DNA from: Bacteriovoracia bacterium
GTDB lineage: Bacteria; Bdellovibrionota; UBA1018; CAIPTA01
Assembly (NCBI GenBank): GCA_050246755.1
Contig: JBFWVL010000005.1
Coordinates: 160,001-224,000, forward strand
DNA length: 64,000 bases
Reading direction: 5' to 3'
Shown here: piece by piece, positions 8,129-34,300 of the stretch
How the letters are laid out: each line of letters starts with the position of its first letter
Numbering within the stretch: the stretch's first letter is position 1
Position numbers and translations under genes: made by a program
Notes under the pieces: model-generated
Seen by the model: the letters and a program-made list of their open reading frames with translations, nothing else
Told to the model about the DNA's origin: nothing
Database searches by the model: none

Positions 8129-9302
8129 TCGCACGCGACACCTCCAGGGAATCAATTTCTCCGCGAAGGACGCGCGCAAGGCGGGCCTCGTGGATCGTTT
8201 GGTGAACTTTGACGATTTTCTTTCCCTCTGCCGGTTCCATCGTTGCCCACTCAAGAACAGGAACACGCCCGCGAATCCCAGCGCAGCAGTTCGAGCATCC
8301 TTGCTCGAACCGCTCGCGGGCTCGCATTGCGGAAGGTCTCTTTCGGCGGTCGATGCGTTGGAGCCATGCAGCCGTATCCATTGAGGGCTCAATCGCGCAA
8401 TCTGCGCAAAGCCGCTGTTCCAAACGCTGCGCAATCGAGAGTCTCAGATTCGATTCCATCACGATACGTTCGACGCCGAGACCTGCGAGACGCTCGATAA
8501 CTTCGAGCGAACCGTTTGCGTGAAGTGTTGTGAAAACAAGATGCCCGGTTTCCGCCGCTTGAAAGCAAAGTTTTGCCGTTTCGGCATCTCGAACCTCGCC
8601 GACCAGGATCACATCGGGGTCCTGCCGTAGCACGGATCGCAGAGCATCGGCGAAGCTCATCTTGCGGCTGACCTGCACTTGATTGAGTCCTTCAATGCGG
8701 TATTCGATGGGATCTTCCAGCGTCACTATGTTGAAGCGCTTGGGGTTGATGGCTTTGAGGCACGCATAGAGAGTTCGCGATTTTCCACTTCCAGTCGGCC
8801 CGGAGACGACTACAACGCCATCTTCGAGTGAAATGGCTCGCCTAAGAGCGGCGATCTCGTTCTCCAGGAAGCCCAGGCCATCCAGCTCGAATGTCGCATC
8901 GAGGTTGAGCAAGCGCATGACGATCTTTTCTCCGAAGTGAGTAGGCAGAAGACTTACGCGTACATCCATTCGGAGACTTGGCATCGACGCGCGCCCATCT
9001 TGCGGGCGACCGCTAACGCCAATCGAGAGACCGAAAATTCGTTTGGCTTCTAAGATCAAGCTCTCCCTGTGCTCCAGTTCGACCTGCTTTTCAAGGATGA
9101 GATTTCCGTCCACGCGGAGTCTTAAATCAACTCCGCTCTCATGCGGCTCAATATGCACGTCACTCGCGCCGCGAGCCTTCGCCGCTTTCATCAGGTCGTG
9201 AAAGAGGCGCGCATAGGGACCGCTCTCCAAAAGCAACTGCTCGCTCGTTCGCCGTTTGGCGACGCTTACGCCGTGTTCCTTCTCAAGCATTATTTCCGTC
9301 AC
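8121..9302 (-). CDS. GspE/PilB-family secretion ATPase
   Basis: ASDVHIEP, RVDG, PQDGR, GPTGSGKS, TLEDPIEY, LRQDPDVILVGEVRD, TGHLVFTTLH, CxxC pairs. Confidence 0.9.
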   Translation of the reverse strand: MTEIMLEKEHGVSVAKRRTSEQLLLESGPYARLFHDLMKAAKARGASDVHIEPHESGVDLRLRVDGNLILEKQVELEHRESLILEAKRIFGLSIGVSGRPQDGRASMPSLRMDVRVSLLPTHFGEKIVMRLLNLDATFELDGLGFLENEIAALRRAISLEDGVVVVSGPTGSGKSRTLYACLKAINPKRFNIVTLEDPIEYRIEGLNQVQVSRKMSFADALRSVLRQDPDVILVGEVRDAETAKLCFQAAETGHLVFTTLHANGSLEVIERLAGLGVERIVMESNLRLSIAQRLEQRLCADCAIEPSMDTAAWLQRIDRRKRPSAMRARERFEQGCSNCCAGIRGRVPVLEWATMEPAEGKKIVKVHQTIHEARLARVLRGEIDSLEVSRAND

Positions 9303-12300
9303 TGCGCACCTGCGCAGGCTGCGGGGATTGCGAGAGCTGCCGCTTGCGCCTGAACCGCAGTCGGCATTTCTTTACAGGCAGTGGTGCGGTTCCAGATCAC
9401 GAACAGATAGCCCTTCAGTTTGCCGCTCGCTAGCCGCATGGTCTCGCGTGAATTTTTGATCGTTTCGAGCAATCCTATATTTTGTCCTTCTCGGAAACAT
9501 GAACTCGATTGAGGGTAGATCATCTGCCACTTCTCATCCGGGCCGCTCGGCATTGTATGAAGGACTTCGGCAGACAAACTCTTGATTCGCGAGGCAATCA
9601 TAAGAGCGCCGGCCATCGAAGCAGGTCCCGTGTATGTGCCGTAGCGCGGATAGAAAGTCCCCCAGCCATTGCAGGCCGGATGCGAACTGGGAGGAAGAAC
9701 ACCGATATTCGGCATCGGAGTGCCGCACATTGCGGAGTCCGATGAGTAGCTACTTCCAGGCGTGCCGGAAATGCTTGTGGCCGCGCCTGCAAGAAGACAG
9801 GCTTTCGGACTCAGGCTCCAAGCCAAGAAAAGTGGCTGGGTCAGATCACCTTTGCCAGTGTTCCAATGGCTGCCAAAGTCTTCGCTCATCCCATCGAAAC
9901 ACATTTTCTCGTTGCGCGTGCCGCCTGCTGGCATGAGCTTAAAGGTCATACTAGCGAACGGCACCGCAATCGTTCGAGCCTGGAAGCTTTGCGTATCATC
10001 ATCGGCCTCCGCGCCAAAAGGCATCGGAGTGACCTTCGAGAGCTGCGCCGCCGCTCCCGGAATGGCCGTGAAGTAGCTCGTCTTTGCCTCCGGCCAGACC
10101 TCAATGAACGTCTGAGGAACGTAGTACGAAATGAGTGCGCACGGATGCGGCGGGTATCCGCAGGTACAACCGCCAACTGCCAACTCAAGGCAGGACGAAA
10201 AGGCCGGACTACTTGCAACCGAACACACGTTCGGAATTCCTGCGGCTTGGACATTTCCGGCAAGCAGGAGTGACGCGGCTACTGCACGAGAGTTCCGAGA
10301 AAAGCTTTTGAGCCACGCCACAAAGCCTCCCTTTTTTGTTACCCGAAGCATTTCGAGAACCGTTTCGTGCTTCGTATTGACCGCCTTCAAGAAGTCGGGC
10401 TTGAGGTAAAGCTTGAGGAACTTCGTCTCGATGCCATCGAAAACTTGCGCGAACGCCTCAAAGGTTCGGAGGCGCGAAAATTCTTTGCCGGTCAGAATGT
10501 CTTCCCGGCGTGTGCCACGGCTCACGGCCTCGTTGAGACTGGAGTTCTTGGAATCGAAACCACCCGCAAGAAGATTTAGCTTCGCGGATTGCGCCGTTTC
10601 GGAAAACGAATGCGTCTGCGACTCCACATCTTCTTTTCCGGCGAGAGCTTGAAACATTTTGATCGTTTCAAGATCGGAAGAATGACAAGCAACGCGCGTC
10701 CGGAAGTTCTGCACGAGTTCAAGCGCTGGACGCTCTCTGCCGACGGTGTTCATCAAACTACTGAGCGACTGAGTTGCAACGATCACGGCAGGCTTTGATT
10801 CGCGGGCTTTAGCCATAAAGGAATCGTCTCCAAGCGTTCCTCCGCCTCCGCAGGTAACTACGTCCTGATACTCGTCAATGATGAGCGCCGAGGTTACCGG
10901 CATGTTCTTTTCTTTGAGCTCGGACAACAGATTCAACACAGCTTGCTCGTAGTGCAGCTTTATGAACGTGCCCATTGACCGCGCGAGGCCAGGCTGCTGA
11001 ATATCGAACAGTAAAATTTTTCCGCTCCGAACAAAGTCCTCCATCGAATGAATCGAAAGGTGTTCCTTGCGCGGACAGAAAATCCGACTGGCCGCAAACT
11101 CCTGAAACTGGTTCACAAAAGCAGTGCTCGTTGCCACGATTCCGGTACGAACGCGGTCTTCAAGTTGCGAGTATTCGTTCTCGAAATACTCGATGGCGCA
11201 ACCGATGTTGAACGCCTCTTCTTGCGTGAAGTTTTTCTCTTTGAGCACTTTTCGCAAATCGTCGGCCAAGTTGTTCTTCGCTGCGCGCACGATTGTTCGG
11301 TATAGATCGAGGAGCGTAAAGTATCCGTGAACCGCCGAGCAGTACGCGATGGTGTTGCGAATCAAATGGGAAGAAGACACGTCCCAAAACGGCGAATCAG
11401 ACGACTTGCCCATAAAATTCACAGCCGCGCAGCGAACCATCTCAGCGAGTGCTACAAACTTCGAGTCTTGCAGCGGATTCTCCATGAAGACTGGGTTGAA
11501 GCTTACGTTTCCCTTAAGTGAGAGTCTGACGATGCGATCCCCAAGACCGAGACGCCGGATCATATTCTCTGCTTCACGCAGGAACGTGCCTTTAGGGTCG
11601 ATGGCGAGGATCGAGGGAGGTCCCTTTGGTTCCGCGAGAAGCTGGCGAAGGTATCGCAGAATTGTGCCTTGGGTTTTCCCACTACCAATGCTTCCAGAAA
11701 TGAACACGCCACCGTGTACGCCGCGGCTAGGGATCGTTACCCATTCTTCGCGATCCTTATCTTCGACAGCTTCAAGCGCCCCGGGCGTTGTCCCTAACAC
11801 CATGTCTCCGCTTTCCTGAACAGGGCGTTCTAGCTTATGTGTGTCGGAAAGGTTGAATCGCAGGCTCCCTGCCAGCCTTAAGATCATTCGACACACGAAA
11901 TAGAACGCACCCGCCAGATTCGCAGAAAGTCCTACTTCGGCGAGCGACGTTGCGTTTGCCGAAATGAGCCGAAGAAAAAATGGAGCAAGGTCAACGACCA
12001 CGCTTCGCTTCGCCCCGAGGTACGCAACGGCTGAGAAAATTGCGGCGAGAATCTCGGCACGAGTGATAGCCCATCGCTCGGCCTTACCTTGTAGAATCTG
12101 AAGTTTGCTTCCTTGGCGTTCAAGGCCCACGCTTCGCTTCAGGAAAATTCCGAGAAAAGAAAGGTTGCAGGCGAACGCCACGACCGACCACCACCAGAAG
12201 GCACCGTGCTGCTGCAAGAGCTCTTCAACGACGAGCATCTTCGCAGGTTCAAACCGCAGGAAGTTTAGATAAACGTATCCCGCTGCTACTACGACGAATG

Positions 12301-12352
12301 CCATCACAGCAATCGAAAGCGGAACATCGTTTTGGGTCTTGGCAGTGTTCAA
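9299..12352 (-). CDS. Type IV coupling protein (TraD/VirD4-like) fused to C-terminal TraU-like domain
   Basis: N-terminal TMs, GSIGSGKT, IDPKG, PFW, IIDEYQ, ATQS. After about aa 700 a Cys-rich domain with GWGTFYPRYG, KWQMIYP, YLFVIW. Confidence 0.8.
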   Translation of the reverse strand: MNTAKTQNDVPLSIAVMAFVVVAAGYVYLNFLRFEPAKMLVVEELLQQHGAFWWWSVVAFACNLSFLGIFLKRSVGLERQGSKLQILQGKAERWAITRAEILAAIFSAVAYLGAKRSVVVDLAPFFLRLISANATSLAEVGLSANLAGAFYFVCRMILRLAGSLRFNLSDTHKLERPVQESGDMVLGTTPGALEAVEDKDREEWVTIPSRGVHGGVFISGSIGSGKTQGTILRYLRQLLAEPKGPPSILAIDPKGTFLREAENMIRRLGLGDRIVRLSLKGNVSFNPVFMENPLQDSKFVALAEMVRCAAVNFMGKSSDSPFWDVSSSHLIRNTIAYCSAVHGYFTLLDLYRTIVRAAKNNLADDLRKVLKEKNFTQEEAFNIGCAIEYFENEYSQLEDRVRTGIVATSTAFVNQFQEFAASRIFCPRKEHLSIHSMEDFVRSGKILLFDIQQPGLARSMGTFIKLHYEQAVLNLLSELKEKNMPVTSALIIDEYQDVVTCGGGGTLGDDSFMAKARESKPAVIVATQSLSSLMNTVGRERPALELVQNFRTRVACHSSDLETIKMFQALAGKEDVESQTHSFSETAQSAKLNLLAGGFDSKNSSLNEAVSRGTRREDILTGKEFSRLRTFEAFAQVFDGIETKFLKLYLKPDFLKAVNTKHETVLEMLRVTKKGGFVAWLKSFSRNSRAVAASLLLAGNVQAAGIPNVCSVASSPAFSSCLELAVGGCTCGYPPHPCALISYYVPQTFIEVWPEAKTSYFTAIPGAAAQLSKVTPMPFGAEADDDTQSFQARTIAVPFASMTFKLMPAGGTRNEKMCFDGMSEDFGSHWNTGKGDLTQPLFLAWSLSPKACLLAGAATSISGTPGSSYSSDSAMCGTPMPNIGVLPPSSHPACNGWGTFYPRYGTYTGPASMAGALMIASRIKSLSAEVLHTMPSGPDEKWQMIYPQSSSCFREGQNIGLLETIKNSRETMRLASGKLKGYLFVIWNRTTACKEMPTAVQAQAAALAIPAACAGAQ

Positions 12353-14266: not shown

Positions 14267-14488
14267 TTAAACAGCGGCTCCGAGCGCGTATTCTTTCTCT
14301 CTGGGAAGAATCTCGCTCACGATTGATTTTGGTTTCACGGTCTTGAGAGCTGCGAGTGCCCAATCGGGAACAGCGCAGAGCTCTTCGGAGTGGGTCTCGT
14401 CATAGTTGCAGTTCACACAAAAGGCGTGAGTGCTGAATCTTTCCAAACCACGCTCACCACAACGGGGGCACATACAGAACTTGTTCAT
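14267..14488 (-). CDS. Small zinc-ribbon protein
   Basis: CPRCG...CVNCNY and RBS GAGGAG. Confidence 0.65.
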   Translation of the reverse strand: MNKFCMCPRCGERGLERFSTHAFCVNCNYDETHSEELCAVPDWALAALKTVKPKSIVSEILPREKEYALGAAV

Positions 14489-14544
14489 GGGAATCTCCTC
14501 TCTCTGAGAGGAAGGTTTCCAGTTGCTCCTCTCACAAATATAAA

Positions 14545-14561
14545 TTGCAAGAAGATGCCCG
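14545..14561 (-). promoter_or_regulatory. Possible sigma54 promoter for the small-gene/transfer region
   Basis: CGGGCATCTTCTTGCAA fits GG-N10-GC with a good TTGCA, but the -24 element is non-canonical. Confidence 0.35.
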
Positions 14562-14636
14562 AAATGGTCACAGCAGATAAATAGTGGGATTGCTGAAGGA
14601 ATCCGTAATCTCGGAAAAAACGAACTTTCTTAAATG

Positions 14637-14755
14637 GTCTATCTAAATAGACCCGAGTCTTTTGAAATAGACCCGCGCCAGATTTTCTGGCTCAGGTCTT
14701 CGCTGCTGCGATCTGGATAAAGGGATCTTAGAGAAATGAGTCTACAAAAACAGAC
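14637..14755. promoter_or_regulatory. Three GTCT-N8-AGAC palindromic sites (putative enhancer/UAS)
   Basis: 14637-14652 GTCTATCTAAATAGAC, 14657-14672 GTCTTTTGAAATAGAC, 14740-14755 GTCTACAAAAACAGAC. Confidence 0.65.
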
Positions 14756-14773
14756 TCGGGGTACGCGAACGCG

Positions 14774-15802
14774 TTAGCGTGCTGCGGAACTGAATGTCCT
14801 GCCGCCGAGAGACGCGGAAACTTCGCTTCCTCGAACTTGAACGGAGAAATCCGAATTGGATAGGGAGCATCCTTTGTCATTACTCAATAGCTTCGCAATG
14901 TAGAGGAAGCCTGTGGGCATCAGCGACGCGATTCGCCCTGAATTTAAAAGCTCCGAGACTAAAGACGCTTCACGGGCCGCGCCCTTCTCGAAAACAGCCG
15001 GAAGAGTCACGGGCAAGTAGTTGTCGTGCTGGTCTGAATAGGCATGAACCTGCGCTTCACCTACGAACTTAAAGAAATAGGGAACGTCACCTCGTCCGAG
15101 TTGCTCGACCTCGGAATCAAAAAGCGGAATTTCGGGTGGCTTCTGAAAAGCTAAGCGGTAGTGGATTGTATCTCTTAAGATATGGCGAATCGGAATCTTC
15201 TTGAACGTAGCTTGCTGGTCTTCGAACACGCGCTGTATCCCCGCAAGGTTCGAAGTGATGCACGAAAGTACGTCATAGTAACCGCGAAGAACAATCTCGA
15301 TTTGCTCAGAAGAAACAATCGCAAGGCTCAATATTGACGAAGCACCGCAGAGGTCGGCGTCGACTTCCTTAAACGGCAGTAAAAGCGTCTCATGCGGAAG
15401 CAGCAAGCGGGAAAGAACCACTTCAGCATCAACGACTTGAATGTGCGTCTCCGTCTTTACCACGTTATTTCTGTGCAAGTCGCGGATTCCGAAAACATAG
15501 CAGTATCCGAGGAGCACACCGAGACTGTACAAATGGGAGCCTGTACTTGGACCCATAGACGCGCGCACTTCCCGGGAAGACCCCTTGAAGTCAGCGCCCA
15601 TCTCTATTTCGAGATTGAAAATCGTCTGCGCAGGGGAAGCTGAGAACGTCGAATTTTTGAAGAAAAATGAGAGTGGACTGTCCTTACCAAAGAACAGCCA
15701 CTCCCAATAGATTGGGCGAGGTTTCTGAAAGATCATTTCAGAACCCCGTCCTATCTTTTGGACCGATTGTCCAAAATTATGGAAATCAGCCTCGAACTTC
15801 AT
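14774..15802 (-). CDS. Stand-alone LanM-type dehydratase domain (DUF4135)
   Basis: DFHNFG, KPR, DLHRNN, VDAE, LLP, RHILRDTIHY and GDVPYF match the LanM kinase/elimination motifs. No LanC cyclase domain. Confidence 0.85.
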   Translation of the reverse strand: MKFEADFHNFGQSVQKIGRGSEMIFQKPRPIYWEWLFFGKDSPLSFFFKNSTFSASPAQTIFNLEIEMGADFKGSSREVRASMGPSTGSHLYSLGVLLGYCYVFGIRDLHRNNVVKTETHIQVVDAEVVLSRLLLPHETLLLPFKEVDADLCGASSILSLAIVSSEQIEIVLRGYYDVLSCITSNLAGIQRVFEDQQATFKKIPIRHILRDTIHYRLAFQKPPEIPLFDSEVEQLGRGDVPYFFKFVGEAQVHAYSDQHDNYLPVTLPAVFEKGAAREASLVSELLNSGRIASLMPTGFLYIAKLLSNDKGCSLSNSDFSVQVRGSEVSASLGGRTFSSAAR

Positions 15803-15808
15803 TGGCAG

Positions 15809-15889
15809 TTAGTTTGAGCTACTGCCAGAGATGTAAGAGTCTGCTTCGGCCTCAAGTGCCGCCAGATTAATTACGATTTGCTCTTGCAT
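15809..15889 (-). CDS. Putative RiPP/autoinducer precursor peptide MQEQIVINLAALEAEADSYISGSSSN (26 aa; not in ORF track)
   Basis: AAGGAG RBS 5 nt before ATG. Fills the gap between the kinase stop and the DUF4135 start (6 nt after TAA). Ser-rich C-terminus. Confidence 0.8.
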   Translation of the reverse strand: MQEQIVINLAALEAEADSYISGSSSN

Positions 15890-15910
15890 GGTCTCTCCTT
15901 TCTTTCTTGT

Positions 15911-17704
15911 TTAGATAACACCCAGAAAGGAAGCCTTTTCAGGCTGCCCCCCACTAATAACCGGTACAATTCCTAAATAGTCTTTCGACAGCCAACGCAC
16001 TCCGAGGCGGTTTGTCCGACTTCGTACTTCAGCGTTTTCCGCCATGCCCGAAATTAAGATACTTTCAAAAGACAGGCCAAATCTCTCGATCAAATCGAGT
16101 CCGCTCGCGTCCTCATCCTTCAAATCACAATCGAACAGATAAAGTCTTTCGCCGAATTCTCCATGACCATTGGCTTCAATCCAATTGGTGAACGCCTCCA
16201 CTGAGGAGAGGTGAACTACTTCTGAAGGTATGGTTCCGAGCTCAGATAGCCTTCGCTGCCAGAGCGAATGAATCAGCGAGTCGTCATCTACAATGACAAC
16301 CTTCCCCTTGGCGGGAAGTTCAACGCAGTCCAGGAAGAGGTCTACTTTCCTAGAAAGTGGAATTCTCACCGCGACAGTTGTTCCTTCACCGATGGAAGAC
16401 TCAATTTGAATTGAGCCTCCAACCTTTTGCAGAACTTCTTTCGCATGGGTGAGCCCAATGCCGTTGCCGTGAGGTTTGCCAAAAGTAATCCTCTCGCTAA
16501 GAAGTTTCGAAAGAACTTCCTGCGGAATTCCTGTTCCATTGTCCTTAAAACGTATTTCCAAAGTCTCTTCGACTTTAGTTCCCGCTATGGTAATTCGTCC
16601 GCCTGTCCCAATGGCCTCGAAAGCATTGTCCAGGATCGTTGCGAACACCGTTTCGAGATCGCCGAGTGTCATGGCGCAAAATGAACCGAAGAACGCAGAT
16701 TCGTTTACGAACTCAACAGACGCTCGGAGGCTGGCGTACTGCGCCCGCTTTGAATCAGAAACGGTTTTGATTGTAGATAAAATGTGAATCGGCTCTTGGG
16801 TGGAAATCGATTCCGCCAAAACATTCGCGGCGGAGCTGCGATTCAACAAGCTGCCCGAAACGTCCTTTAAAGATGCAACGCAATCATTTAGGCTACGCTT
16901 GTCCTTCAACGAAAGATTCGGGATTTCATTGATTCTTAGCTGGAGAGTCGCAATCACGCCCTTAATAGCGTGTGCAACTTGCTCAGCCAGAGCCAAACGC
17001 AACTTATCCATTCCGACTGTTGCTAGATTCCTTTCCAGAACGACAATCTGCTTTAGTAACGTGGAAATCGAAGTAGTCAGCTCCTCAATCTCAAGAATTT
17101 GCGAGCGAGCGACTGGAGGCTCCTGTGCATGAGCAGAGTCAGGAAGCCCTTTTGCTACAAATTTGAGCCACTGAATTCGATTTTCGAGCGGTCCAATTAC
17201 CAGGTTGATGGTCATTCGTCTCATCCACCACATCAAAACCAGGAATACGCATCCAATGAACAGCGCAATCGAGGCAAGCAGTAGAACTCCGGATTGGATG
17301 AAACTCGCCAGGCTGACCTCTACGATGATCGAAAGCATCTGACCGGAGGGAAGGGGCGTTGTCTCTTCCACTCGCGAATGGAAAATTCCGAAGGGCTGCA
17401 ATTGCCCAGCATGGCTAATCAGCTTGCCGTCGAGTGAAATGTCCACGCGTAAATCCAAGTCTTGGGTCTCTTTCCACGTTTGTGTGAATCGCGCGATCTC
17501 CTTGTCGATCTCGTTCACGTTCTGGGAGTTCACGCCTGCTTCGGCCAACGCCGCAACATGATTGGTTACGAATCGCATTGCTTGGGTTTCTGTCTTCTTC
17601 AGCGAGTAAACGGAGTATGCGAGCAAAGCCAAGCCCGCAGCCCCAAGGCTCAGGGCCAGGCCGCGTTTTAGAATGCTGAGAATGACAGAGTAGATCGAGG
17701 TCAT
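15911..17704 (-). CDS. Hybrid sensor histidine kinase (2 TM, HATPase, C-terminal receiver)
   Basis: QVAHAIKG H-box, DNAFEA, DNGTG, GNGIGL. Receiver VDDD...D...SG...K. Confidence 0.9.
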   Translation of the reverse strand: MTSIYSVILSILKRGLALSLGAAGLALLAYSVYSLKKTETQAMRFVTNHVAALAEAGVNSQNVNEIDKEIARFTQTWKETQDLDLRVDISLDGKLISHAGQLQPFGIFHSRVEETTPLPSGQMLSIIVEVSLASFIQSGVLLLASIALFIGCVFLVLMWWMRRMTINLVIGPLENRIQWLKFVAKGLPDSAHAQEPPVARSQILEIEELTTSISTLLKQIVVLERNLATVGMDKLRLALAEQVAHAIKGVIATLQLRINEIPNLSLKDKRSLNDCVASLKDVSGSLLNRSSAANVLAESISTQEPIHILSTIKTVSDSKRAQYASLRASVEFVNESAFFGSFCAMTLGDLETVFATILDNAFEAIGTGGRITIAGTKVEETLEIRFKDNGTGIPQEVLSKLLSERITFGKPHGNGIGLTHAKEVLQKVGGSIQIESSIGEGTTVAVRIPLSRKVDLFLDCVELPAKGKVVIVDDDSLIHSLWQRRLSELGTIPSEVVHLSSVEAFTNWIEANGHGEFGERLYLFDCDLKDEDASGLDLIERFGLSFESILISGMAENAEVRSRTNRLGVRWLSKDYLGIVPVISGGQPEKASFLGVI

Positions 17705-19227
17705 TCAACGCTCATTTCGACGCTTTCAAGAGGGAGCGTGTGAATCCCAAGCGGATGCGACGGCACTGACTTCACCCGACGGCTCCAAAGCCCAGAGGCT
17801 TCAGATCCGAAAAAAAGCGGAATCACAGTATTGTGTGCCAGAATTTTCTTTTGGATGTCCTTGTAGGCGTTCGCTCTGTCTTCTGGATCAACAATTTGAA
17901 TCACGTTGAGCAGAGCACTATCGACAGCTTTATCATCGACGTAAAAGTAATTAGATTCGTATTTGCCTTTGAAATAACCAAGGACAGAAAAGCCATCGGG
18001 GTAGTCCATCGCTTTTCGTGCGATGATAGCTTGGGACTTTTTCCCGAAGAGGCGCTGGAGTTTCTCACCCTTTGACAGTGCATTGAGCTTCACGGTTACG
18101 CCAAGTAGCGCCCACTTCTCTTTTAGAAAAAGTGCCGTCTTCTCTTCCAAGTTTGATGCGCCCTCGTAGTCCATCTCAATGACGATTGGCTTCGACGGTT
18201 TTGCCGACTTCATCGACTTCAACTGCTCCACGTCGGTTGCACTAAGTTCTCCGGCTAGACCAAATGGAATCAGGCCAAATGCCGCGCGATAAGACTGATT
18301 GCCAAGACTGCGAATGATTTCTGCGGAATCTACGGACGAATAGAGCGCGCGCCGCACATCACTCGGGACCTTCTCAGGATTGAAAACTACAAAAACTTCT
18401 CCCGCAAGTTCAGTAGCGGCGGCGGCCCAGCCCTGCTTTTGGAGTTTGGCCTTCTCGATATCGTCGATCCGATAGTGGTCGAGTGTATCAATCTTTTCAG
18501 CCAGCGCGAGCTCAACGGGTTTCTCGGCGACCATCGAATACGAAATGGATTTAGGAGGCAATGGGCTGTCCAGAGCGTCAGGTCTCCATTTCTCGATGGT
18601 GAGATTGGTCTTTGTTACTTCGCCGACGAGTTTGTAAGGGCCGCTAAACGCTCCCTTTGCTGAAATCTCCGGATTCTGTTTGAAGTCGTCAATCGGAAGG
18701 ATTGAGCAATCGGCTACAGCGAGTTGCTTCAGGAAAATGGCCGAGGGCTCGCTCAGTCGGAATTCGACAGTTTGATCGTCGATTGGAACCACTCCGAATT
18801 TTCCGATCTCCTGCTGGGTCTTGAATGCCCTCGCACCAGAAATGTAGTCAATGTCAGCGGCCATCGACGCTCCGACAAGAAACATCCTAGCGAACGTCAT
18901 TTGGACATTCTTGGCGGTGATCGGTTTTCCATCGGAAAATGTGGCTTTGCGTATTTTGAAGCGGTACGTCTTGTGATCTTCCGATTCAGTCCACGATTCC
19001 GCCAGGTCAGCGCGGATATCTCCGGTCGTGTTGTATCGGAGAAGCCCACGGTACAACTGAGTAGCCACAGCCATCGAGTACGCGTCTTCCATTTTCTGCG
19101 GATCGAGATTCATCGCCACCGCCGGCAAATGAATTCGCAACCCTTCAATCGCAGGAGTTTTAGATTTTGTGCAACTGACCATCACAGCTCCTAAAAGGAT
19201 GAATGCAACACCTCTACAAACGTGCAT
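17701..19227 (-). CDS. Family-5 (OppA/DppA-like) solute-binding lipoprotein, no cognate permease
   Basis: Lipobox MVSC, LDP, LYRGLL, DLAESW, FSDGKPITA, SGPYKL. Confidence 0.9.
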   Translation of the reverse strand: MHVCRGVAFILLGAVMVSCTKSKTPAIEGLRIHLPAVAMNLDPQKMEDAYSMAVATQLYRGLLRYNTTGDIRADLAESWTESEDHKTYRFKIRKATFSDGKPITAKNVQMTFARMFLVGASMAADIDYISGARAFKTQQEIGKFGVVPIDDQTVEFRLSEPSAIFLKQLAVADCSILPIDDFKQNPEISAKGAFSGPYKLVGEVTKTNLTIEKWRPDALDSPLPPKSISYSMVAEKPVELALAEKIDTLDHYRIDDIEKAKLQKQGWAAAATELAGEVFVVFNPEKVPSDVRRALYSSVDSAEIIRSLGNQSYRAAFGLIPFGLAGELSATDVEQLKSMKSAKPSKPIVIEMDYEGASNLEEKTALFLKEKWALLGVTVKLNALSKGEKLQRLFGKKSQAIIARKAMDYPDGFSVLGYFKGKYESNYFYVDDKAVDSALLNVIQIVDPEDRANAYKDIQKKILAHNTVIPLFFGSEASGLWSRRVKSVPSHPLGIHTLPLESVEMSVE

Positions 19228-20392
19228 AACCAGCTCTTTGCTTCGCCTGAAATCTCGGCAATGTCATAAGGCCGAGTACGATCGCGCAAAAGGCTCCTCG
19301 CCACAGTCCATCGGCAAATACCGGGAGAACCTTGCTCCACGATCCCACCAGGAGTTCGCCGCTCGCAAGAATGACAACCATTTGAGTCATGCGCGCACTC
19401 GTGACTGCTCCCATCTTTTCCTGGGGTGTATCCATCTGAATGTGCGCTGAGATTCTATGAAGAATCAGCCAGTAAAACGTATCTTTGGAGAGAGCGAGAG
19501 CAACCGTTATCCAGCCCATGCCAGAAAAGTAGCCGAGCATGCCATAAGAGACCGCAAGCCCGATCCAAAGAGACGATGAACGCTCACTAAGGGAATTGGA
19601 CCGCTCGATATATCCGGCAAACCACACGGCGACTCCGTAGATACCAATTAGAAGTGCCATCCACTTTTGATCGTCGCCCACCAGACGAGCTGTGAAGGAG
19701 GTCGTTCCCATCATTGAAATGGCCAAGAGCAAATCTAAGACGGCAGCGCGACTATTGTATCTGTAGAAGTCGGCGAACTTCGCGAAGACACTCTCGGCAA
19801 ACGAAGCTGCTCGCTCAATCGTGGGCTCCGCAATTGGCAAGAAGAATACAATGATTCCATTTGCCGTGAATGTCGCGAGATCGAACCAGATCGCAGTTTC
19901 GAATGTCGAATACTTAATGATGGGCCACGCGCAAAGACCGGCGAAAAGTGTAGCTCCTTGAGTTGCCTTGTTGAACCAGATTGCGTGACTTGCATTCGAG
20001 GCATACGAAGTGTCTGCCAAGAGCTTCGTGATCTTCGCTTTGCTGCCTGCCTGGAACGAAACGATGGAAGTTTTGAGTAGACTGAAAGCAACGAGTAGCC
20101 AGTATCCGTGGTGGCCCTGTTCCCAGGCCCAAAGAATACCGAGTGAAGCCGCAGCCGCACCAAGTTCAGCTACAACGATGGTCAGCCGCGGAGAAATAGA
20201 ATCGGTAACATGCCCGAACAGGCCAGCAATGATTATGGGTACTAACCGCTGAAGACCTAGAATTAAACTGATGTGAAAAAGGTCAAAGCCCCCCTGAACC
20301 ATGAAGGCAACCAAGCAGATATTGAACGTGAAACTCCCAATGGAAGAAAGGAGCGTGCCCAAGTAAAACCAAGAGGCTAGGTTCATTTTCAT
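19214..20392 (-). CDS. MFS transporter (putative peptide exporter)
   Basis: About 12 hydrophobic segments, GHVTDSISPR motif A-like, PQEKMGAV. Confidence 0.85.
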   Translation of the reverse strand: MKMNLASWFYLGTLLSSIGSFTFNICLVAFMVQGGFDLFHISLILGLQRLVPIIIAGLFGHVTDSISPRLTIVVAELGAAAASLGILWAWEQGHHGYWLLVAFSLLKTSIVSFQAGSKAKITKLLADTSYASNASHAIWFNKATQGATLFAGLCAWPIIKYSTFETAIWFDLATFTANGIIVFFLPIAEPTIERAASFAESVFAKFADFYRYNSRAAVLDLLLAISMMGTTSFTARLVGDDQKWMALLIGIYGVAVWFAGYIERSNSLSERSSSLWIGLAVSYGMLGYFSGMGWITVALALSKDTFYWLILHRISAHIQMDTPQEKMGAVTSARMTQMVVILASGELLVGSWSKVLPVFADGLWRGAFCAIVLGLMTLPRFQAKQRAGYARL

Positions 20393-21870
20393 GATACTGC
20401 CTCCTCGGTCTCCGCAGACTCGCCGAGAAGACGTTTCTTTCTGTTGAAGTAAGCTGCCTTCGACATTCCGAGAAGCGTATAGAGGAATCTGTTATTCCCA
20501 TCGAAAAGCTTCAATCCGCTGGCTAGATACAAGCGTTCCATCCATTCGAGGGCCGACTGAAATTGCGCTGCGGAAACATCCTCCTTCGAGCGCGGAAGCA
20601 GTCCATCGGGAATGAAAATTAGCTGATCCGGCGAAACAGCATTCGGATCAAGGCCAAGGTGTTCAGGTTTCAACACGGGCCTGGAGGAACCCTTGATGTC
20701 AATGTAAGCGCGTTCAACCGCATTCTGAAGCTCTCGAATGTTCCCACGCCAAGGATATGCAGCGAGCACCTTGCGTGCGGGCACGGAAATCTTTCCCATT
20801 GGAAGTCGGCGCTTCAAAAACTCCTCGGCCAAATATTCGATGTCCTCTGGACGCTCTCTCAGCGCCGGGACGCGAAGGGAAATCTGATTGAGACGGTAGA
20901 AGAGGTCTTCTCTGAAACGTCCCTTTTTGATTTCGGCTTCCAGGTCTCGGTTTGTAGCCGCAATCACGCGCACATTCACGGTAACGGGCTTGATGGCACC
21001 CACTGGAGTAAAGGTTTGTTCTTGGAGAACTCGCAAAAGCTTAGCCTGCATTTCCAAGGGAACTTCACCGATCTCATCGAGAAAGATGTCACCACCGTCG
21101 GCAAGCTTGAATTGGCCCTGCTTCGCCTCTGATGCCCCGGTGAAGGCGCCTTTTGCGTGACCAAACAACTCACTCTCGAAAAGGTTCGCCGGGATCGCGG
21201 CGCAATTGACGGCAATGAATGGTCGCGAGGGATCGTCTTCTTGAAGGTTGAGATTCCTGGCTACTAGCTCTTTTCCGGTTCCGTTTTCTCCAGTGATAAG
21301 AACGTAGGAATGTGTTCCCTTCATTCTCAGGATGTCGCGACGAAGCTTCAAAGTAACTTCGGAAACGCCCAATATCTCGTATGAACGAACATGCGTTGCG
21401 AGCTTGGCCGTTAATTTCCGATTTTTCTCAAACTGCGTTTCGTTTTCCTGAATCAGAGTCCGATTTCGTCGAAGGATCGCAGCTTTCTCCAATACGTTTG
21501 CCACGCGAAATTTTAGGTTTGCTGCAAATTCATCCGAGCCTTTGATGACGAAATCGGCCGCGCCAGCCTTCATCGTTTCAATAATGGTTTCGGGCTGACT
21601 ATTTCCGGTCAACATCACGACAGGGAGCTCGGGCATTCGGCGCTTGAGGAGCTTCAAAAATTCCAGCCCTGAAATTTGAGGTAAACCAAAGTCGAGAAGA
21701 ACTAGATCGGGCCGGAACTGGCCGAGGACCCGCATCGCTTCAGTCGGCTCATGGACCGTCGATACCTCGTGCTCCTGGCGAAAAAGAGCTACAACGGACT
21801 CAGCGAAACGCTTGTCATCGTCTACGAGCAGAATCCTTAAAGCTGGTGTTCCTTCTGGGCTTTCCGGCAT
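20389..21870 (-). CDS. Sigma54-dependent response regulator (NtrC-like)
   Basis: Receiver domain, GENGTGKE, ESELFGH-GAFTGA, FLDEIGE, FREDLFYRLN, WRGNIREL, C-terminal HTH. Confidence 0.95.
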   Translation of the reverse strand: MPESPEGTPALRILLVDDDKRFAESVVALFRQEHEVSTVHEPTEAMRVLGQFRPDLVLLDFGLPQISGLEFLKLLKRRMPELPVVMLTGNSQPETIIETMKAGAADFVIKGSDEFAANLKFRVANVLEKAAILRRNRTLIQENETQFEKNRKLTAKLATHVRSYEILGVSEVTLKLRRDILRMKGTHSYVLITGENGTGKELVARNLNLQEDDPSRPFIAVNCAAIPANLFESELFGHAKGAFTGASEAKQGQFKLADGGDIFLDEIGEVPLEMQAKLLRVLQEQTFTPVGAIKPVTVNVRVIAATNRDLEAEIKKGRFREDLFYRLNQISLRVPALRERPEDIEYLAEEFLKRRLPMGKISVPARKVLAAYPWRGNIRELQNAVERAYIDIKGSSRPVLKPEHLGLDPNAVSPDQLIFIPDGLLPRSKEDVSAAQFQSALEWMERLYLASGLKLFDGNNRFLYTLLGMSKAAYFNRKKRLLGESAETEEAVS

Positions 21871-21883
21871 AAGCCGGAGACAT

Positions 21884-21900
21884 AGCTAGGTTCATGCCAA
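21884..21900 (-). promoter_or_regulatory. Sigma54 (-24/-12) promoter of cassette 1
   Basis: TTGGCATGAACCTAGCT = TGGCA, GG-N10-GC, just upstream of the regulator gene. Confidence 0.65.
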
Positions 21901-21985
21901 AACGGAGGGCTTTACTCAACTACCTAAAATTGCAGGAGAATGGCTCTGGCAGCGGCTCTCGGGTGATTTCGAGGTATCTAAAAGA

Positions 21986-22001
21986 GTCTATATAGATAGA
22001 C
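21986..22001. promoter_or_regulatory. GTCT-N8-AGAC palindrome (putative UAS) about 90 bp upstream of the sigma54 promoter
   Basis: GTCTATATAGATAGAC followed by CCG, as in the sites at 14637 and 14657. Confidence 0.65.
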
Positions 22002-22090
22002 CCGATATGTAGAACTTTCACGAAACTGACCAATCGGTAGCAGATTGACCCCATATACAAGAACCGTTTCCCAAACAAATTCAGTAGGTC

Positions 22091-30892: not shown

Positions 30893-31338
30893 GTCGTACA
30901 AAGTCGATTCCCGGAATAAATATACAGTGGCCTTGGAGTCGCCTGATTGTTGACGGCAGCAAGACTGTCGAGACACGCCGTTATCCCATTCCTTCGCATT
31001 ATCTCGAAGTGCCGCTCGCGATTATTGAAACGCCTGGCCCAAAGGGAAAGTCGGAAGCCCAGATTCTCAAGGCACAGGTAGTCGGAATCGTCTGTTTTAA
31101 ACGTAGCTTTAGGTATTCAACCGCTGCTGACTGGCGCGACGATTTTAAACGCCATCAAGTGTCGGCAGATTCCCAGTTTCGCTTCGACTCAAAAAAAGAG
31201 ACGTGGGGATGGGAAATCATGTCGGTTACGAAATTCGCAAAGCCGTATCCCGCGCCCTCAAAGCGCGGGATCGTCTTTACTAAAAGCTGCAAAATCTCTA
31301 GCGGCGAGCCGTCTTCTTTTCTGTCGCCGGAGCTCTAA
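30889..31338 (+). CDS. ASCH/PUA-like domain protein
   Basis: INIQWPWSRLIVDGSKTVETR is the ASCH GxKxxExR signature. Confidence 0.85.
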   Translation: MSRTKSIPGINIQWPWSRLIVDGSKTVETRRYPIPSHYLEVPLAIIETPGPKGKSEAQILKAQVVGIVCFKRSFRYSTAADWRDDFKRHQVSADSQFRFDSKKETWGWEIMSVTKFAKPYPAPSKRGIVFTKSCKISSGEPSSFLSPEL

Positions 31339-34300
31339 CCAATCCGGAACACAACTCATCCAAGTCTCCAAGGGCCTTTTGAAGGGCTTTGATTGAGACG
31401 TTGTCTTTTCCTACTCCGGGTTTCAGCTCCTGACGGTCTAGGACATTTCGAATGATCGTCGTTTTGGTGCCGCCCTTTAATAGGTTGCTGACGAGCCCCG
31501 AAATCTGTTCATAGTGCGACACAACCTTTTCCCGAACCGATTTTTGAGTCAGAAGCGTTACAGGAATTGGCAGGCGCGCCAACTGTGGTGTTCCAATCCT
31601 CAGAGCCCCGCCGTTGAGATGCAGCGACTCGAACATATTTGAGTAAATTTCGGTAGCAACAGACGAATTTAGGTAAGCGGCGATTGCCTTCAATTCCTCT
31701 TTGTCGCCGAAAATCATCGTTGTCGAAATTCCAGGCGCATATGATCCGTTGTCGAAATATGCTCGGAGCATTTGGGTCATATTAGGAATGATAATCTTCT
31801 GCGTTTGATACTGCTTCTTTCTCTTATCAATAATTTTAGAAGATGAGAGGTCGAGGTACGGACTTTCGTAGCCGGCCTTCAAATACTGCACTTTCTGTAG
31901 ACCCCAAGTACACGCGAATCCCAGGACGTTTCCGCTAACGATGAATTTCACGGATTGCTTCGGTCGCTTCTCGGTAATGTTCGGCTTAATGCACTTGTAG
32001 GCCTCATCAACGGTCGCGGCTGCCAAGATTTCGAACTTGTCACCCAGTAGGAAACTCTCGAAAGCCTTGATGTCTGTAGCGGCCAATAGTTCCGACAAGT
32101 AGTTTGTCGCCGCGGAGCCTGGAAATTCCTTTTCACTCCAAGCGCAAGCCAAATCAAATTTTAGATCATGCTTACGGTAGCGAATCTTCTTAGGCTTGTT
32201 CGGCGACAACGTCAAAATGATCGGATAAACAGAAGCATCTTCAAAGATCGGCACATGACTTGCGTCATCGACGGCTTCGATGAATGTCTTCTTGTCTTCT
32301 CTAATGAATTCACGCATCCCAACGGCACTATCAACCGCGATTAACTTATTGGGAAGAATGAATCCGATCCGTGATGTCGGCCCAATCCGCCTAGCAACTT
32401 CTACGAACAAGGAGCAAATATCGAATGCGCCTTTTGCAGATGTCAGCTTTGCCTTAATGTCCTCTTTGTAATTAGGATTTCTTTGAAGAATCCGCTCAAG
32501 GAGGAACGTGTTAACGTAAGGGGGATTTCCAATAATCCCGTGGAATCCTCCGGCCTTCATAACAGGGGCGAAAGTCTTTCCGATTTTAACATCGTCAGTG
32601 AGCGAGTCGGCGCAAGTGAGTTGGTCAGCAAGCGGCTCTAGTTCCTGATTTTTCCGCACGGTGTACATCCAAAGGGAGAATTTCGCGAGTTCCACCGCAA
32701 GAGGGTTCAGGTCTATGCCATAGATGCAATTGTGAAGGATTTCCCAACGAACATCTTCGCGGTTGATGTTGGGGTGCGCATCTTCTTTGTAGATTGCGTC
32801 CAACATTCTTTCTTCCAGGTACTTGATCGCACCAATAAGAAAATGCCCAGAGCCCATTGCAGGATCGCAAACTCGCACAGCCAGAATTTCGTCAGTTGAT
32901 TTTGCCTTGCAGAGAGGATCGAGAACTTGCCCCACGATGTAGTCAACGATGTAGCTAGGAGTATAGTACGAGCCAGTGTCTTTTCGACTTCCGGTGCCGT
33001 TCTCAAGAAATAAATCGCCCTTTTCGATGACGGCATCTTTGAGTTTTTGCTTCTTTTGTTCGGTCAATTCTTTCCAGGGTCGGATTTTCTTTCCATCGTC
33101 TACGAGACGTTCAGTTGCACGAACGAGTTTGTAATCCAACAGACCCTCAAAGAGGGAGCCAAGGTGATCCGGTGATAATCTTTTGTAGTCGATGAATTTT
33201 AGATCGCCACCTTCATCATAGGCACATGCTAGTTCTACAATTGCGGGATTCAGTGCAGAATCTGGAATCGTATGGCGCTTGAAGTAGTCTTTTGAGCCAG
33301 ACGAAAACACCTCAGACCCTAAAGTGAAGACGCCAATGGATTTGTCGCCCTTTTCAAGGAGCGCCATCAGTTCGGAAATGTGTTGGTAGGATTTGTTTTG
33401 TGCCGACCACTTACGGCCAATCTCAAAATCCTTCTTTAGATCAAGTGCCAAACTTCTAAGCGAAGATGGGTAGAAGTCTGAAAGATCGTTTACATCGAAG
33501 ATTCCCTTCGCTTCAGCATTCAAAATGAACATCAATCGAAAGAGGTAGTACAGACTGTGCTGATAGATTTCGTTTAAATTTTCGTCGGAGAGATCAGAAT
33601 ACTGCGTAGCGAATCCACGACAGATCGTCTGAGTAATTCGAAAGGCGCGGTGTCGAAGCTGGGTTTCAACTTCCTTCGCATATTGTTCGCCTGATTTGTA
33701 GACGACATCCAAGAATGACTGACTGCTTGGGCCTTTTGAGAGGAATGCCTCTTTGCGGAAGAAGTTGAAGAAGTATTTGAATCGTTCGTCGTCGCGAGTT
33801 GCTAGAGCTTTTCGAATATTGATTTCAAAAAACGTCGAGAACTTTGACTCTGAATTTAGGGAATAGATGCGCCAATACTCGCCGTCAGTGAGTATGCCCC
33901 AAGTTTTTCCGGTGTCTTCCATGTACCGAATGATTTGATAGCTAGGGTTGCTGTTGGTTCTGCCTGTGCCGTCGAGGTTAACGCCCATCGCTTTGGCGTC
34001 GGCGACAGCAAGAACGTGCTTGAAGTATGCGGCATCATTTTTCGCACTTTTGCCGTGAATGTAAGATTTGTCGTCTGCGAAAAGGGAGTAATCTGGAATC
34101 TGCGTCTTGCCGCGTTTCTTCATTCGGTCTTGAACTTCATAGGTCCAGCCGAGACGCTTGAATATCGGGCGAATCCACTTGTCTTCCAGTTGCGCCTCAT
34201 CGAGGTCTTTGTATATGTCTTTGTACTCGTCCCAGGTTGAAAGCATCCATTCGTAGCATTCAGAGAACTCGGGCAGCGCCTCTGTCTCCCAATGCTCTAG

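Follow-up and report, generated by a model that had tools for sequence, protein, structure and literature searches.

What is encoded by the short open reading frame (ORF) that fills the gap between a hybrid histidine kinase gene and a DUF4135 gene in a Bacteriovoracia bacterium, and what would its product be for? The ORF lies at positions 15,809–15,889 of the stretch of DNA analysed here (64,000 nucleotides of contig JBFWVL010000005.1, positions 160,001 to 224,000; hereafter the window), and a preliminary description had named it a hidden 26-residue precursor peptide. Together with its neighbours and its relatives in other genomes, the ORF is best seen as part of a conserved, undescribed peptide-signalling cassette built around a mini-LanM, a small relative of the kinase/lyase domain of class II lanthipeptide enzymes, with a chemistry, an export route and a mode of sensing that are predicted from gene content and conservation.

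The short gene and its family

The peptide gene, its ribosome-binding site and the enzyme gene that follows are placed as follows:

15809..15889, minus strand: precursor peptide gene, 26 amino acids, stop codon counted in (ATG 15889-15887, TAA 15811-15809)
15895..15900, minus strand: Shine-Dalgarno (SD) sequence AAGGAG of the peptide gene, 5 nt ahead of the ATG
14774..15802, minus strand: stand-alone mini-LanM (DUF4135) kinase/lyase, 342 amino acids, no cyclase domain (Pfam PF13575)

The minus strand of 15809-15889 translates exactly to MQEQIVINLAALEAEADSYISGSSSN, which has five Ser among its C-terminal nine residues and 0 Cys. The ATG follows the stop codon of the hybrid kinase gene by 21 nt and the peptide stop codon precedes the ATG of the DUF4135 gene by 6 nt. 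The preliminary description, which had placed a short ORF with an AAGGAG ribosome-binding site between these two genes and had read five Ser and no Cys in its C-terminal part, was right on both points, the strand being the minus strand.

The locus was compared with 34 loci from species genomes, nearly all of them metagenome-assembled genomes (MAGs) of Bdellovibrionota, and with 80 of 159 matching metagenome loci. With L033 and L034 (C-terminal fragments) left out, 32 genome loci could be assessed, and an ORF of 23–29 codons with an SD-like motif stands directly 5' of the enzyme gene in 27 of them (start codon GTG in two). A hidden Markov model (HMM) built from 26 distinct peptides (window and genome loci) was run over 22,499 six-frame stop-to-stop segments of at least 15 amino acids from 674,395 bases of related loci, and matched 49 segments at E<=1.5e-6, all on the strand of the enzyme and directly 5' of the DUF4135 gene, including 21 from metagenome loci outside the model-building set. 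The next match (E 0.0038) is again 5' of an enzyme gene and the remainder have E >=0.68. Within the genome of the window, one of 116,709 segments was matched, the ORF itself, which is part of the model, and the runner-up had an E value of 0.73. The check that had been proposed for the ORF, a search for equivalents upstream of DUF4135 homologues, is thus positive for 27 of 32 assessable genome loci and for 21 metagenome loci.

The 50 loci with the ORF hold 40 distinct peptides of 23–29 residues, 26 of which are exactly 26 residues long. All 50 have a purine-rich SD-like motif in the 16 nt before the peptide start, and the peptide stop codon falls between -10 and +11 nt from the enzyme start. 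The N-terminal part follows the consensus x-x-[IV]-x-[IV]-[ND]-L-x-x-[LI]-E-A-E-[AS]-E-S-[FY]-x-x-G and the end varies around a near-invariant Ser-Ser, as would be expected from the leader plus core proposed earlier. Ser-Ser lies inside the last six residues of 35 of the 40 peptides and is part of an [AGST][GS]-x-S-S site in 30; Cys is present in five of the 40 and absent from 35. In the closest relative, L038 (enzyme 75% identical), the peptide differs by A10S alone. The family thus shows the pattern of a precursor of peptides made by the ribosome and then modified after translation (RiPPs), a short ORF adjoining the enzyme gene in which a recognition region and a modifiable residue are both conserved. 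On the same conservation, the leader of the window peptide is proposed to span residues 1 to ~20-22, ending in S-G, and the core to be S-S-S-N, which includes the Ser-Ser conserved in the family, with the boundary and the modified residues placed accordingly.

On its own, an ORF of 26 codons is nothing unusual in a gap of 96 nt, and the enzyme gene lacks an SD sequence of its own, such that the ORF could be a chance occurrence or a mere spacer for translational coupling. By itself the ORF could indeed be due to chance; the comparative data are not. In a MAFFT-guided codon alignment of the 26 distinct peptide genes, each of the six Leu codons occurs at the invariant Leu. Ser stands at column 25 in 25 of 26 genes, encoded as AGC, AGT, TCA or TCT, and at column 26 in 22 of 26 genes, where six codons occur, with both Ser codon boxes in use; pN/pS is 0.50 with pS near saturation at 0.79, and compensating one-residue indels distinguish the peptides of the family. 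This codon pattern is that of selection on the amino acids, which have been kept through synonymous change, and the length has been held at 23–29 residues in all 40 distinct peptides. Further, no locus with an enzyme >=37% identical to that of the window lacks the ORF, save one broken by an end resembling that of an insertion sequence. A non-functional ORF is already contradicted by these observations and scarcely credible, and the ORF is very probably a real gene that is translated.

Among the loci without the peptide, the broken one, L015 (1-204; a Bdellovibrionota genome), has the 5' half of the peptide gene replaced by a transposase-like C-terminal end (by eye), with the contig edge 181 nt upstream and the remnant '...AEEFELGSLG' ahead of the enzyme gene. 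L030 (2398-2547) and L031 (559-708) have a divergent ORF ~110 nt upstream of the enzyme gene with the ending ...SLESEMKTVHTTDF (...IDMDSLESEMKTVHTTDF; HTTDF) and thus with Thr-Thr instead of Ser-Ser; the start codon is ambiguous and in L031 there is an in-frame stop further upstream. No peptide ORF was found at L032 (Myxococcales MAG), L037 (Oligoflexia MAG) or L003, nor at 52 metagenome loci (L065-L072, L074-L117) whose enzymes, 24–33% identical mostly over residues 5-258, form a separate high-GC clade. Look-alikes of the peptide at L058, L061, L062, L063, L064 and L073 were seen by eye only. At L003 (340-2565; G059), the 30%-identical DUF4135 homologue lies directly after a radical-SAM/SPASM-like gene that seems to be split into two overlapping ORFs of 272 and 116 amino acids (by eye), a different partnership for the mini-LanM fold.

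A mini-LanM and the fate of the serine pair

The only Pfam match of the enzyme is DUF4135 (PF13575; 48.8 bits against a cut-off of 29), aligned over residues 92-132 only, and the model for full-length LanM (TIGR03897) scored 32.7 bits against a cut-off of 304. Two further comparisons place it among the LanM enzymes. In a search of the PDB with a profile of 31 family members, the only significant sequence matches were CylM (5DZT; E 6e-7) and LicM2 (6ST5; E 2e-5), and the same two proteins were the sole significant Foldseek matches (CylM, E 3.8e-8 and TMq 0.58; LicM2, E 1e-7) of an AlphaFold (AF2) model of the enzyme (pLDDT 93.3, pTM 0.92). Nine residues are invariant in 31 of 31 family sequences (D6, H8, K27, D108, H110, N113, D125, R206 and T212). 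The motif D108-L-H110-x-x-N113...D125-x-E aligned onto CylM D347, H349, N352 and D364, P-I-R206-x5-T212 onto CylM R506 and T512, and D6-x-H8...K27-P-R onto the 'GDSH...KPR' stretch of LicM2, with the equivalence of D6/H8 to CylM D252/H254 drawn through LicM2 and position, there being no direct alignment to CylM for these two. According to the available text of the CylM study (eLife 2015), K274, D347, H349, N352 and D364 act in phosphorylation and D252, H254, R506 and T512 act in the elimination of phosphate, which is abolished by T512A. The mini enzyme therefore retains both the kinase residues of LanM (K27, D108, H110, N113 and D125) and the residues for phosphate elimination (D6, H8, R206 and T212).

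A LanC-like zinc cyclase domain is absent from the 342 residues, in which DUF4135 is the one match, and the enzyme is a cyclase-less, half-size LanM dehydratase. No LanC-like protein (PF05147) was found elsewhere in the 95.7%-complete genome, a weak negative given that control genomes gave no match either, and longer fused relatives were not found among proteins of 600-2000 amino acids, likewise a weak negative. Without a cyclase and without Cys no thioether ring can form. The earlier statement that a peptide lacking Cys would not yield lanthionine consequently holds for the window peptide and for 35 of the 40 family peptides, and the core has none of the Cys that a (methyl)lanthionine of a lanthipeptide product requires.

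The public gene call of the enzyme (protein P0002; 320 amino acids) starts at Met23 and lacks the invariant D6, H8 and N9, while the 342-residue start used here is in agreement with the family alignment. The later start widens the apparent gap between the genes, in which the peptide gene hides. As the enzyme gene has no SD sequence of its own, its translation is probably coupled to that of the peptide gene. Among 61 genomes of the same class, the enzyme occurs in three, that of the window included. A word-indexed protein search returned 189 matches to the enzyme, with PF13575 in all of the 120 listed, and a profile search of 1.84 billion representatives returned 323 clusters (50% identity) at E<=1e-30 and 530 at E<=1e-10, the best 150 representatives being 151–423 amino acids long.

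It is likely that the peptide is the substrate of the adjacent enzyme. The N-terminal ~20-22 residues would serve the mini-LanM as a recognition leader, the conserved C-terminal Ser-Ser would be phosphorylated with ATP and the phosphate would then be eliminated, most likely to dehydroalanine, given that the LanM elimination residues have been kept. In an alternative reading, the mini-LanM is only a Ser kinase and a phospho-Ser-phospho-Ser peptide is the active end product. This has a precedent in phospeptin of 'Ca. Eudoremicrobium malaspinii', for which the accessible text of a 2022 Nature paper, a preprint and a review describes that EmbM phosphorylates two adjacent Thr of the Cys-free EmbA with no elimination, such that dehydration does not follow from the domain alone. 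It could also draw on the structure, as the mini enzyme is without the capping helices of CylM (Leu5-Asn131 and Ile180-Tyr200) and most of its N-lobe (Lys135-Ser279), the alignment to CylM starting at about residue 248-324, from the P-loop onward. In the CylM text that was available, the capping helices hold the KA domain in place; with them and most of the N-lobe missing, activity and leader binding may differ from those of LanM, and elimination could be impaired. EmbM, however, is described in the same available sources as having no elimination residues, whereas the equivalents of CylM D252, H254, R506 and T512 are invariant here (31 of 31), and a doubly phosphorylated peptide would be a poor fit for export by a transporter of the major facilitator superfamily (MFS), the type encoded in the cassette. 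A phosphopeptide end product is unlikely on these grounds, and dehydration is favoured over it with modest confidence. Of the linear product that the preliminary description had called dehydroalanine-rich or phosphorylated, the pair of options is well chosen, with the CylM residues of both steps kept and EmbM stopping at the phosphopeptide, but 'rich' was an overstatement, since only the Ser-Ser pair, and not all five Ser, is conserved.

The cassette and its promoter

Upstream of the peptide gene, four further genes complete a cassette of 7.3 kb on the minus strand, in the order sigma-54 regulator, MFS transporter, solute-binding protein (SBP), hybrid kinase, peptide and enzyme:

20389..21870, minus strand: NtrC-family response regulator (RR; REC and sigma-54 AAA+ activator domains), 493 amino acids (Pfam and NCBIfam)
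19214..20392, minus strand: MFS-type transporter with 12 transmembrane (TM) helices, 392 amino acids, candidate exporter of the mature product (Pfam MFS_1; direction and substrate putative)
17701..19227, minus strand: orphan family-5 (OppA/DppA/NikA-like) solute-binding lipoprotein, 508 amino acids, candidate receptor (SBP_bac_5)
15911..17704, minus strand: hybrid histidine kinase (HK), 597 amino acids (HATPase_c, E 1.8e-17)

Neighbouring genes overlap by 4 nt (RR/MFS), 14 nt (MFS/SBP) and 4 nt (SBP/HK, ATGA), and the other gaps are <=21 nt. The regulator matches Sigma54_activat (E 1.2e-65) and Response_reg (E 3.2e-23) in Pfam, and its best NCBIfam matches, AtoC, NtrC and LuxO, are all under their equivalog cut-offs. 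Of 14 cassette homologues of the transporter, 10 match MFS_1 (best E 3.2e-12). The SBP matches SBP_bac_5 (E 1.7e-35) in Pfam and OppA, NikA and DppA below cut-off in NCBIfam; all 12 aligned homologues keep the Cys19 of its lipobox (alignment A3, which leaves out L018 due to a stop codon inside the SBP coordinates of that locus), and no permease or ATPase of the ATP-binding cassette (ABC) type was found in the cassette (Pfam). The kinase has two TM helices around a periplasmic domain of ~95 residues (both read from the sequence), a DHp domain with His245, HATPase_c and a C-terminal receiver (Asp525), and H245, N360, D474, D525 and K574 are invariant in 17 of 17 homologues (alignment A2).

The arrangement is widely kept. 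By tblastn with the window proteins, 15 loci that have sufficient flanking sequence show the same order, RR-MFS-SBP-HK-peptide-enzyme; the MFS-SBP-HK block has been turned round in L026, L027 and L029 yet still abuts the peptide-enzyme pair, and in L030 and L031 the SBP and kinase genes are located after the enzyme gene. Six MAGs possess two cassettes each, with differing peptide ends (FEAGFSSGT vs FTGGVSSQ; YSGSASSN vs YSDGGSSCG), which fits what is expected for separate signal channels. The setting of the peptide amongst a sigma-54 regulator, a transporter, an SBP and a kinase, which the preliminary description had not recognised, points to signalling.

Ahead of the regulator gene and again downstream of the enzyme gene there are candidate regulatory elements:

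21884..21899, minus strand: sigma-54-type -24/-12 element TGGCATGAACCTAGCT, ahead of the regulator gene (2 mismatches to TGGCAC-N5-TTGC)
21984..22003, minus strand: palindrome GGGTCTATCTATATAGACTC, core GTCTAT-N4-ATAGAC (21986-21991/21996-22001), candidate upstream activator site (binding predicted)
14636..14757, minus strand: three more palindromes of the same type (14738-14757, GAGTCTGTTTTTGTAGACTC; 14654-14675; 14636-14653), candidate regulator sites at a downstream output promoter

The regions upstream of the regulator gene in the window and in eight further loci all (nine of nine) carry TGGCA[CT]-N5-T-N-GC[TA], 51 to 65 nt ahead of the 'xxxxDD' anchor of REC. The promoter claim rests on this conservation and not on the single match in the window, where a scan for sigma-54 elements gave 47 matches against 52.9 expected. 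Palindrome GGGTCTATCTATATAGACTC is ~96-100 nt upstream of the -24 element, and palindromes occur at -157 to -170 from the REC anchor in all nine loci, exact when scored by script in the window, L121, L122, L123 and L124, and imperfect, judged by eye, at the same relative place in L119, L120, L125 and L126. Their letters are specific to the locus (AGTCTCA-N4-TGAGACT in L122; AGTTCGC-N4-GCGAACT in L121 and L123). In L004, L012, L014, L020 and L025, the two or three palindromes after the enzyme gene match the upstream box of that same locus. After these palindromes, a cTTGCAATTCTAA-like motif is conserved in the window, L004, L012, L014 and L020, with a correctly spaced GG in the window and L004 only (by eye). 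The genome encodes rpoN (456.5 bits), such that a -24/-12 element, rpoN, an AAA+ activator and an upstream palindrome are all found at the level of sequence; such a layout is typical of a sigma-54 operon that depends on an activator and governs both its own expression and a neighbouring promoter, with regulator binding and transcription starts as predicted from the elements. In the window, no more than a few nt would separate the predicted start from the annotated ATG. One further palindrome (33286-33303) was rejected as a regulator site and taken as chance, as it lies inside a 1054-residue ORF (31298-34462, minus strand) with an NPPY-type motif that looks like a fused type IIG-like restriction-modification enzyme.

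The three downstream palindromes lie between the enzyme gene and a gene for a 73-residue zinc-ribbon-like protein (14267-14488, minus strand; C-x2-C ... C-x2-C), in the intergenic region 14489-14773. No Pfam or NCBIfam family matched this protein; tblastn homologues lie downstream of the enzyme gene in L004, L012, L014, L015, L018 and L022, and by eye in L019. The zinc-ribbon gene may be the output gene of the circuit.

From these genes the remaining steps of the mechanism can be proposed. Housekeeping proteases would cut after the Gly-rich [AGST][GS] site and release a peptide of 4-6 residues, x-S-S-x(1-3), a size that suits MFS export and OppA/DppA-type binding. The modified peptide would be exported by the MFS transporter of the cassette and bound in the periplasm by the OppA/DppA-like lipoprotein, and the SBP, once loaded, would pass the signal on by way of the kinase's periplasmic domain to the NtrC-type regulator, which would activate its own sigma-54 promoter from the upstream palindrome (positive feedback) and would also act at the second cluster of sites just downstream of the enzyme gene. 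A predicted complex of the mature SBP (residues 20-508, A3) with the periplasmic domain of the kinase (residues 36-132, A2) reached 0.50, 0.03 and 0.05 in the runs, against a mark of 0.32, values that count neither for nor against such a contact.

The preliminary description had also reported that no dedicated protease is present in the cassette, and the six cassette proteins contain no protease family (Pfam, NCBIfam). The peptide might accordingly stay in the cytoplasm as a modified small regulator or pseudo-substrate (e.g., of the cytoplasmic part of the kinase or of a receiver), with the MFS transporter and SBP handling another molecule, a reading in keeping with a cassette that has neither a signal peptide nor a dedicated protease nor a peptidase-containing ABC exporter. 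The conserved leader-like N-terminus with a short C-terminal modification site is, however, the pattern of a RiPP precursor and no precedent for such a regulator was found in the literature searched, which makes a cytoplasmic role very unlikely.

It is less straightforward to decide what the SBP, kinase and regulator sense. They could respond to an outside cue, such as prey-derived or cell-wall peptides, with the modified peptide being exported as a factor for predation, protection or antimicrobial action. Clusters of the lantibiotic type (nisin, subtilin) commonly include a two-component system together with an exporter, family-5 SBPs bind many oligopeptides (as in the OppA/DppA/GsiB matches in NCBIfam), the carriers are predatory Bdellovibrionota and no link ties the ligand of the SBP to the peptide. 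Set against this, the conserved mature end is just x-S-S-x(1-3), very small for an antimicrobial, and no gene for immunity, whether for an ABC transporter or of another recognised type, was found in the cassette (Pfam, NCBIfam). The SBP gene, moreover, stays with the peptide-enzyme pair through the rearrangements in L026, L027, L029, L030 and L031, and the genomes with two cassettes hold two full sets, SBP and kinase included, which fits cognate pairs of signal and receptor. An outside cue is rather unlikely as the explanation, and a loop in which the cassette senses its own product as an autoinducer is close to evenly balanced, with doubt slightly ahead.

Several observations weigh against a signalling loop of this kind, in addition to the missing capping helices and the phosphorylation-only activity of EmbM. 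The peptide has no signal sequence, and the terminal Ser-Ser is missing from the last six residues of five of the 40 distinct peptides. The cassette encodes no protease and no Hpt protein (Pfam, NCBIfam); elsewhere, the genome has one unlinked Peptidase_C39 match and five Hpt matches. MFS_1 matches the transporter of the window with an E value of 2e-4, below the Pfam gathering score. The -24/-12 element of the window has two mismatches, stands ~15 nt before the annotated ATG and, as a single match, is not above chance. The ligand of the SBP may be another molecule than the product of its own cassette, and a search of sequencing runs found no RNA run containing the stretch; a single low-share run gave one 229-nt contig within the enzyme gene (15460-15688) and none over the peptide, which was called uninformative.

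On balance, a signalling loop based on a mini-LanM-modified peptide nevertheless comes out as the best explanation of the locus as a whole, with belief a little stronger than disbelief. A more specific version is tentative and on present evidence doubtful: an enzyme-modified ribosomal tetra- to hexapeptide, carrying a Ser-Ser-derived dehydroalanine or pyruvoyl form, could be a diffusible autoinducer of Bdellovibrio-like predators; a minimal LanM would produce it, an MFS pump would carry it out of the cell and an OppA-like lipoprotein coupled to a hybrid kinase and a sigma-54 activator would detect it, with paralogous cassettes of different cores acting as separate 'pherotype' channels.

Other genes nearby bear on the mobility of the cassette. 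A few kb downstream of it, the window encodes a coupling protein of the TrwB/TraG type (1017 residues; 9299-12352, minus strand) whose C-terminal extension is long and rich in Cys. It recurs in two related loci (L004, 8565-11475; L019, 9265-11538), and in another genome (L120, 2919-4336) the sigma-54 regulator gene with a truncated MFS remnant of 168 residues abuts type IV secretion-like genes (by eye). The cassette may travel with a conjugative or type IV secretion system-like element.

Comparison with known systems

Modified ribosomal peptides that act as signals between cells are seen as a speciality of Gram-positive bacteria, and to our knowledge no signal of this kind is known for the predatory Bdellovibrionota. 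If the proposed loop is true, it would represent peptide quorum sensing in a Gram-negative phylum for which none is known, and would give the lanthipeptide dehydratase fold a novel biological role. The cassette is a complete, testable candidate, with a precursor, one enzyme, a transporter, a receptor, a kinase, a regulator and a promoter in 7.3 kb. At ~340 residues the enzyme is the smallest natural LanM-type kinase/lyase, and would help to show which parts of LanM are needed to recognise the leader and to eliminate phosphate, as well as offering a compact means of placing dehydroalanine in peptides.

No paper describing this mini-LanM family or cassette was found in a search of the full-text literature (DUF4135, Bdellovibrio RiPPs or lanthipeptides, stand-alone or cyclase-less LanM, phospeptin), the scope of which ends at subscription-only papers and supplements, and within the same scope none of the papers listed for peptide quorum sensing mentions Bdellovibrio. 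The system would have gone unnoticed because gene callers miss the peptide and mis-start the enzyme, and because a published survey of PF13575 for dehydrazoles (Nat Commun 2023), according to its accessible text, discarded proteins <500 amino acids, which puts this family of 330-420 residues outside that survey.

In the available text of the sources cited above, phospeptin is the closest published case. In both systems, a cyclase-less LanM-like protein is the sole modifying enzyme, the precursor is linear and Cys-free, and two adjacent hydroxyl residues are the targets or presumed targets; histidine kinase and response regulator genes are also reported in the EmbA/EmbM cluster. The family described here is set apart by the description of EmbM as lacking the elimination residues that are invariant in the mini-LanM, and by the precursor, which is 26 residues in total, whereas EmbA is described as having a long Nif11-type leader with a Gly-Gly site. 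LanM dehydratase domains that make dehydro amino acids without lanthionine are described for PoyF (polytheonamide; review) and CcaM/LanMbC (dehydrazoles; Nat Commun 2023), in the text of these sources that was accessible. As described there, both differ from the mini-LanM in acting on long precursors in multi-enzyme proteusin or azole pathways, and CcaM (>1000 amino acids) further requires a class III cyclase-like domain and azole-containing cores.

The class II lanthipeptides share with the cassette the homology of the enzyme to the LanM kinase/lyase domain (CylM, 5DZT; LicM2, 6ST5) and a short ribosomal precursor encoded alongside, with an acidic leader ending in a Gly-rich dipeptide. They differ in the size of the enzyme (~900-1000 residues for LanM against 342 here), in the precursor, which here has no Cys (and so no lanthionine) and a core of only 4-6 residues, and in context, as the cassette belongs to a Gram-negative predator, has no LanT/C39 exporter and is tied to an SBP, a kinase and a sigma-54 regulator.

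Amongst signalling systems, the autoinducing lantibiotics nisin (NisRK) and subtilin (SpaRK) are examples in which a peptide modified by LanM/LanB-type enzymes induces its own operon via a two-component system. A modified peptide, a two-component switch and positive feedback would be common to both. The lantibiotics are large, ringed antibiotics of Gram-positive bacteria that are sensed directly by the kinase, whereas the product proposed here would have no rings and a tiny core, and would act through an SBP intermediary on a sigma-54-dependent promoter.

For the sensing half of the cassette, the likeness in component types is to the Vibrio AI-2 circuit (LuxP/LuxQ/LuxU/LuxO), in which a transporter-less periplasmic binding protein, a hybrid kinase and a sigma-54 regulator of the NtrC family are likewise combined. 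The regulator scored 282.7 bits (E 5.2e-84) with the LuxO model, whose cut-off is 800, and its AtoC and NtrC matches rank above that to LuxO. The two circuits differ in that the cassette has no Hpt (LuxU) gene, the five Hpt matches lying elsewhere in the genome, and in that the SBP here is of family 5 (peptide/opine type) and the presumed signal is a modified ribosomal peptide encoded in the same operon.

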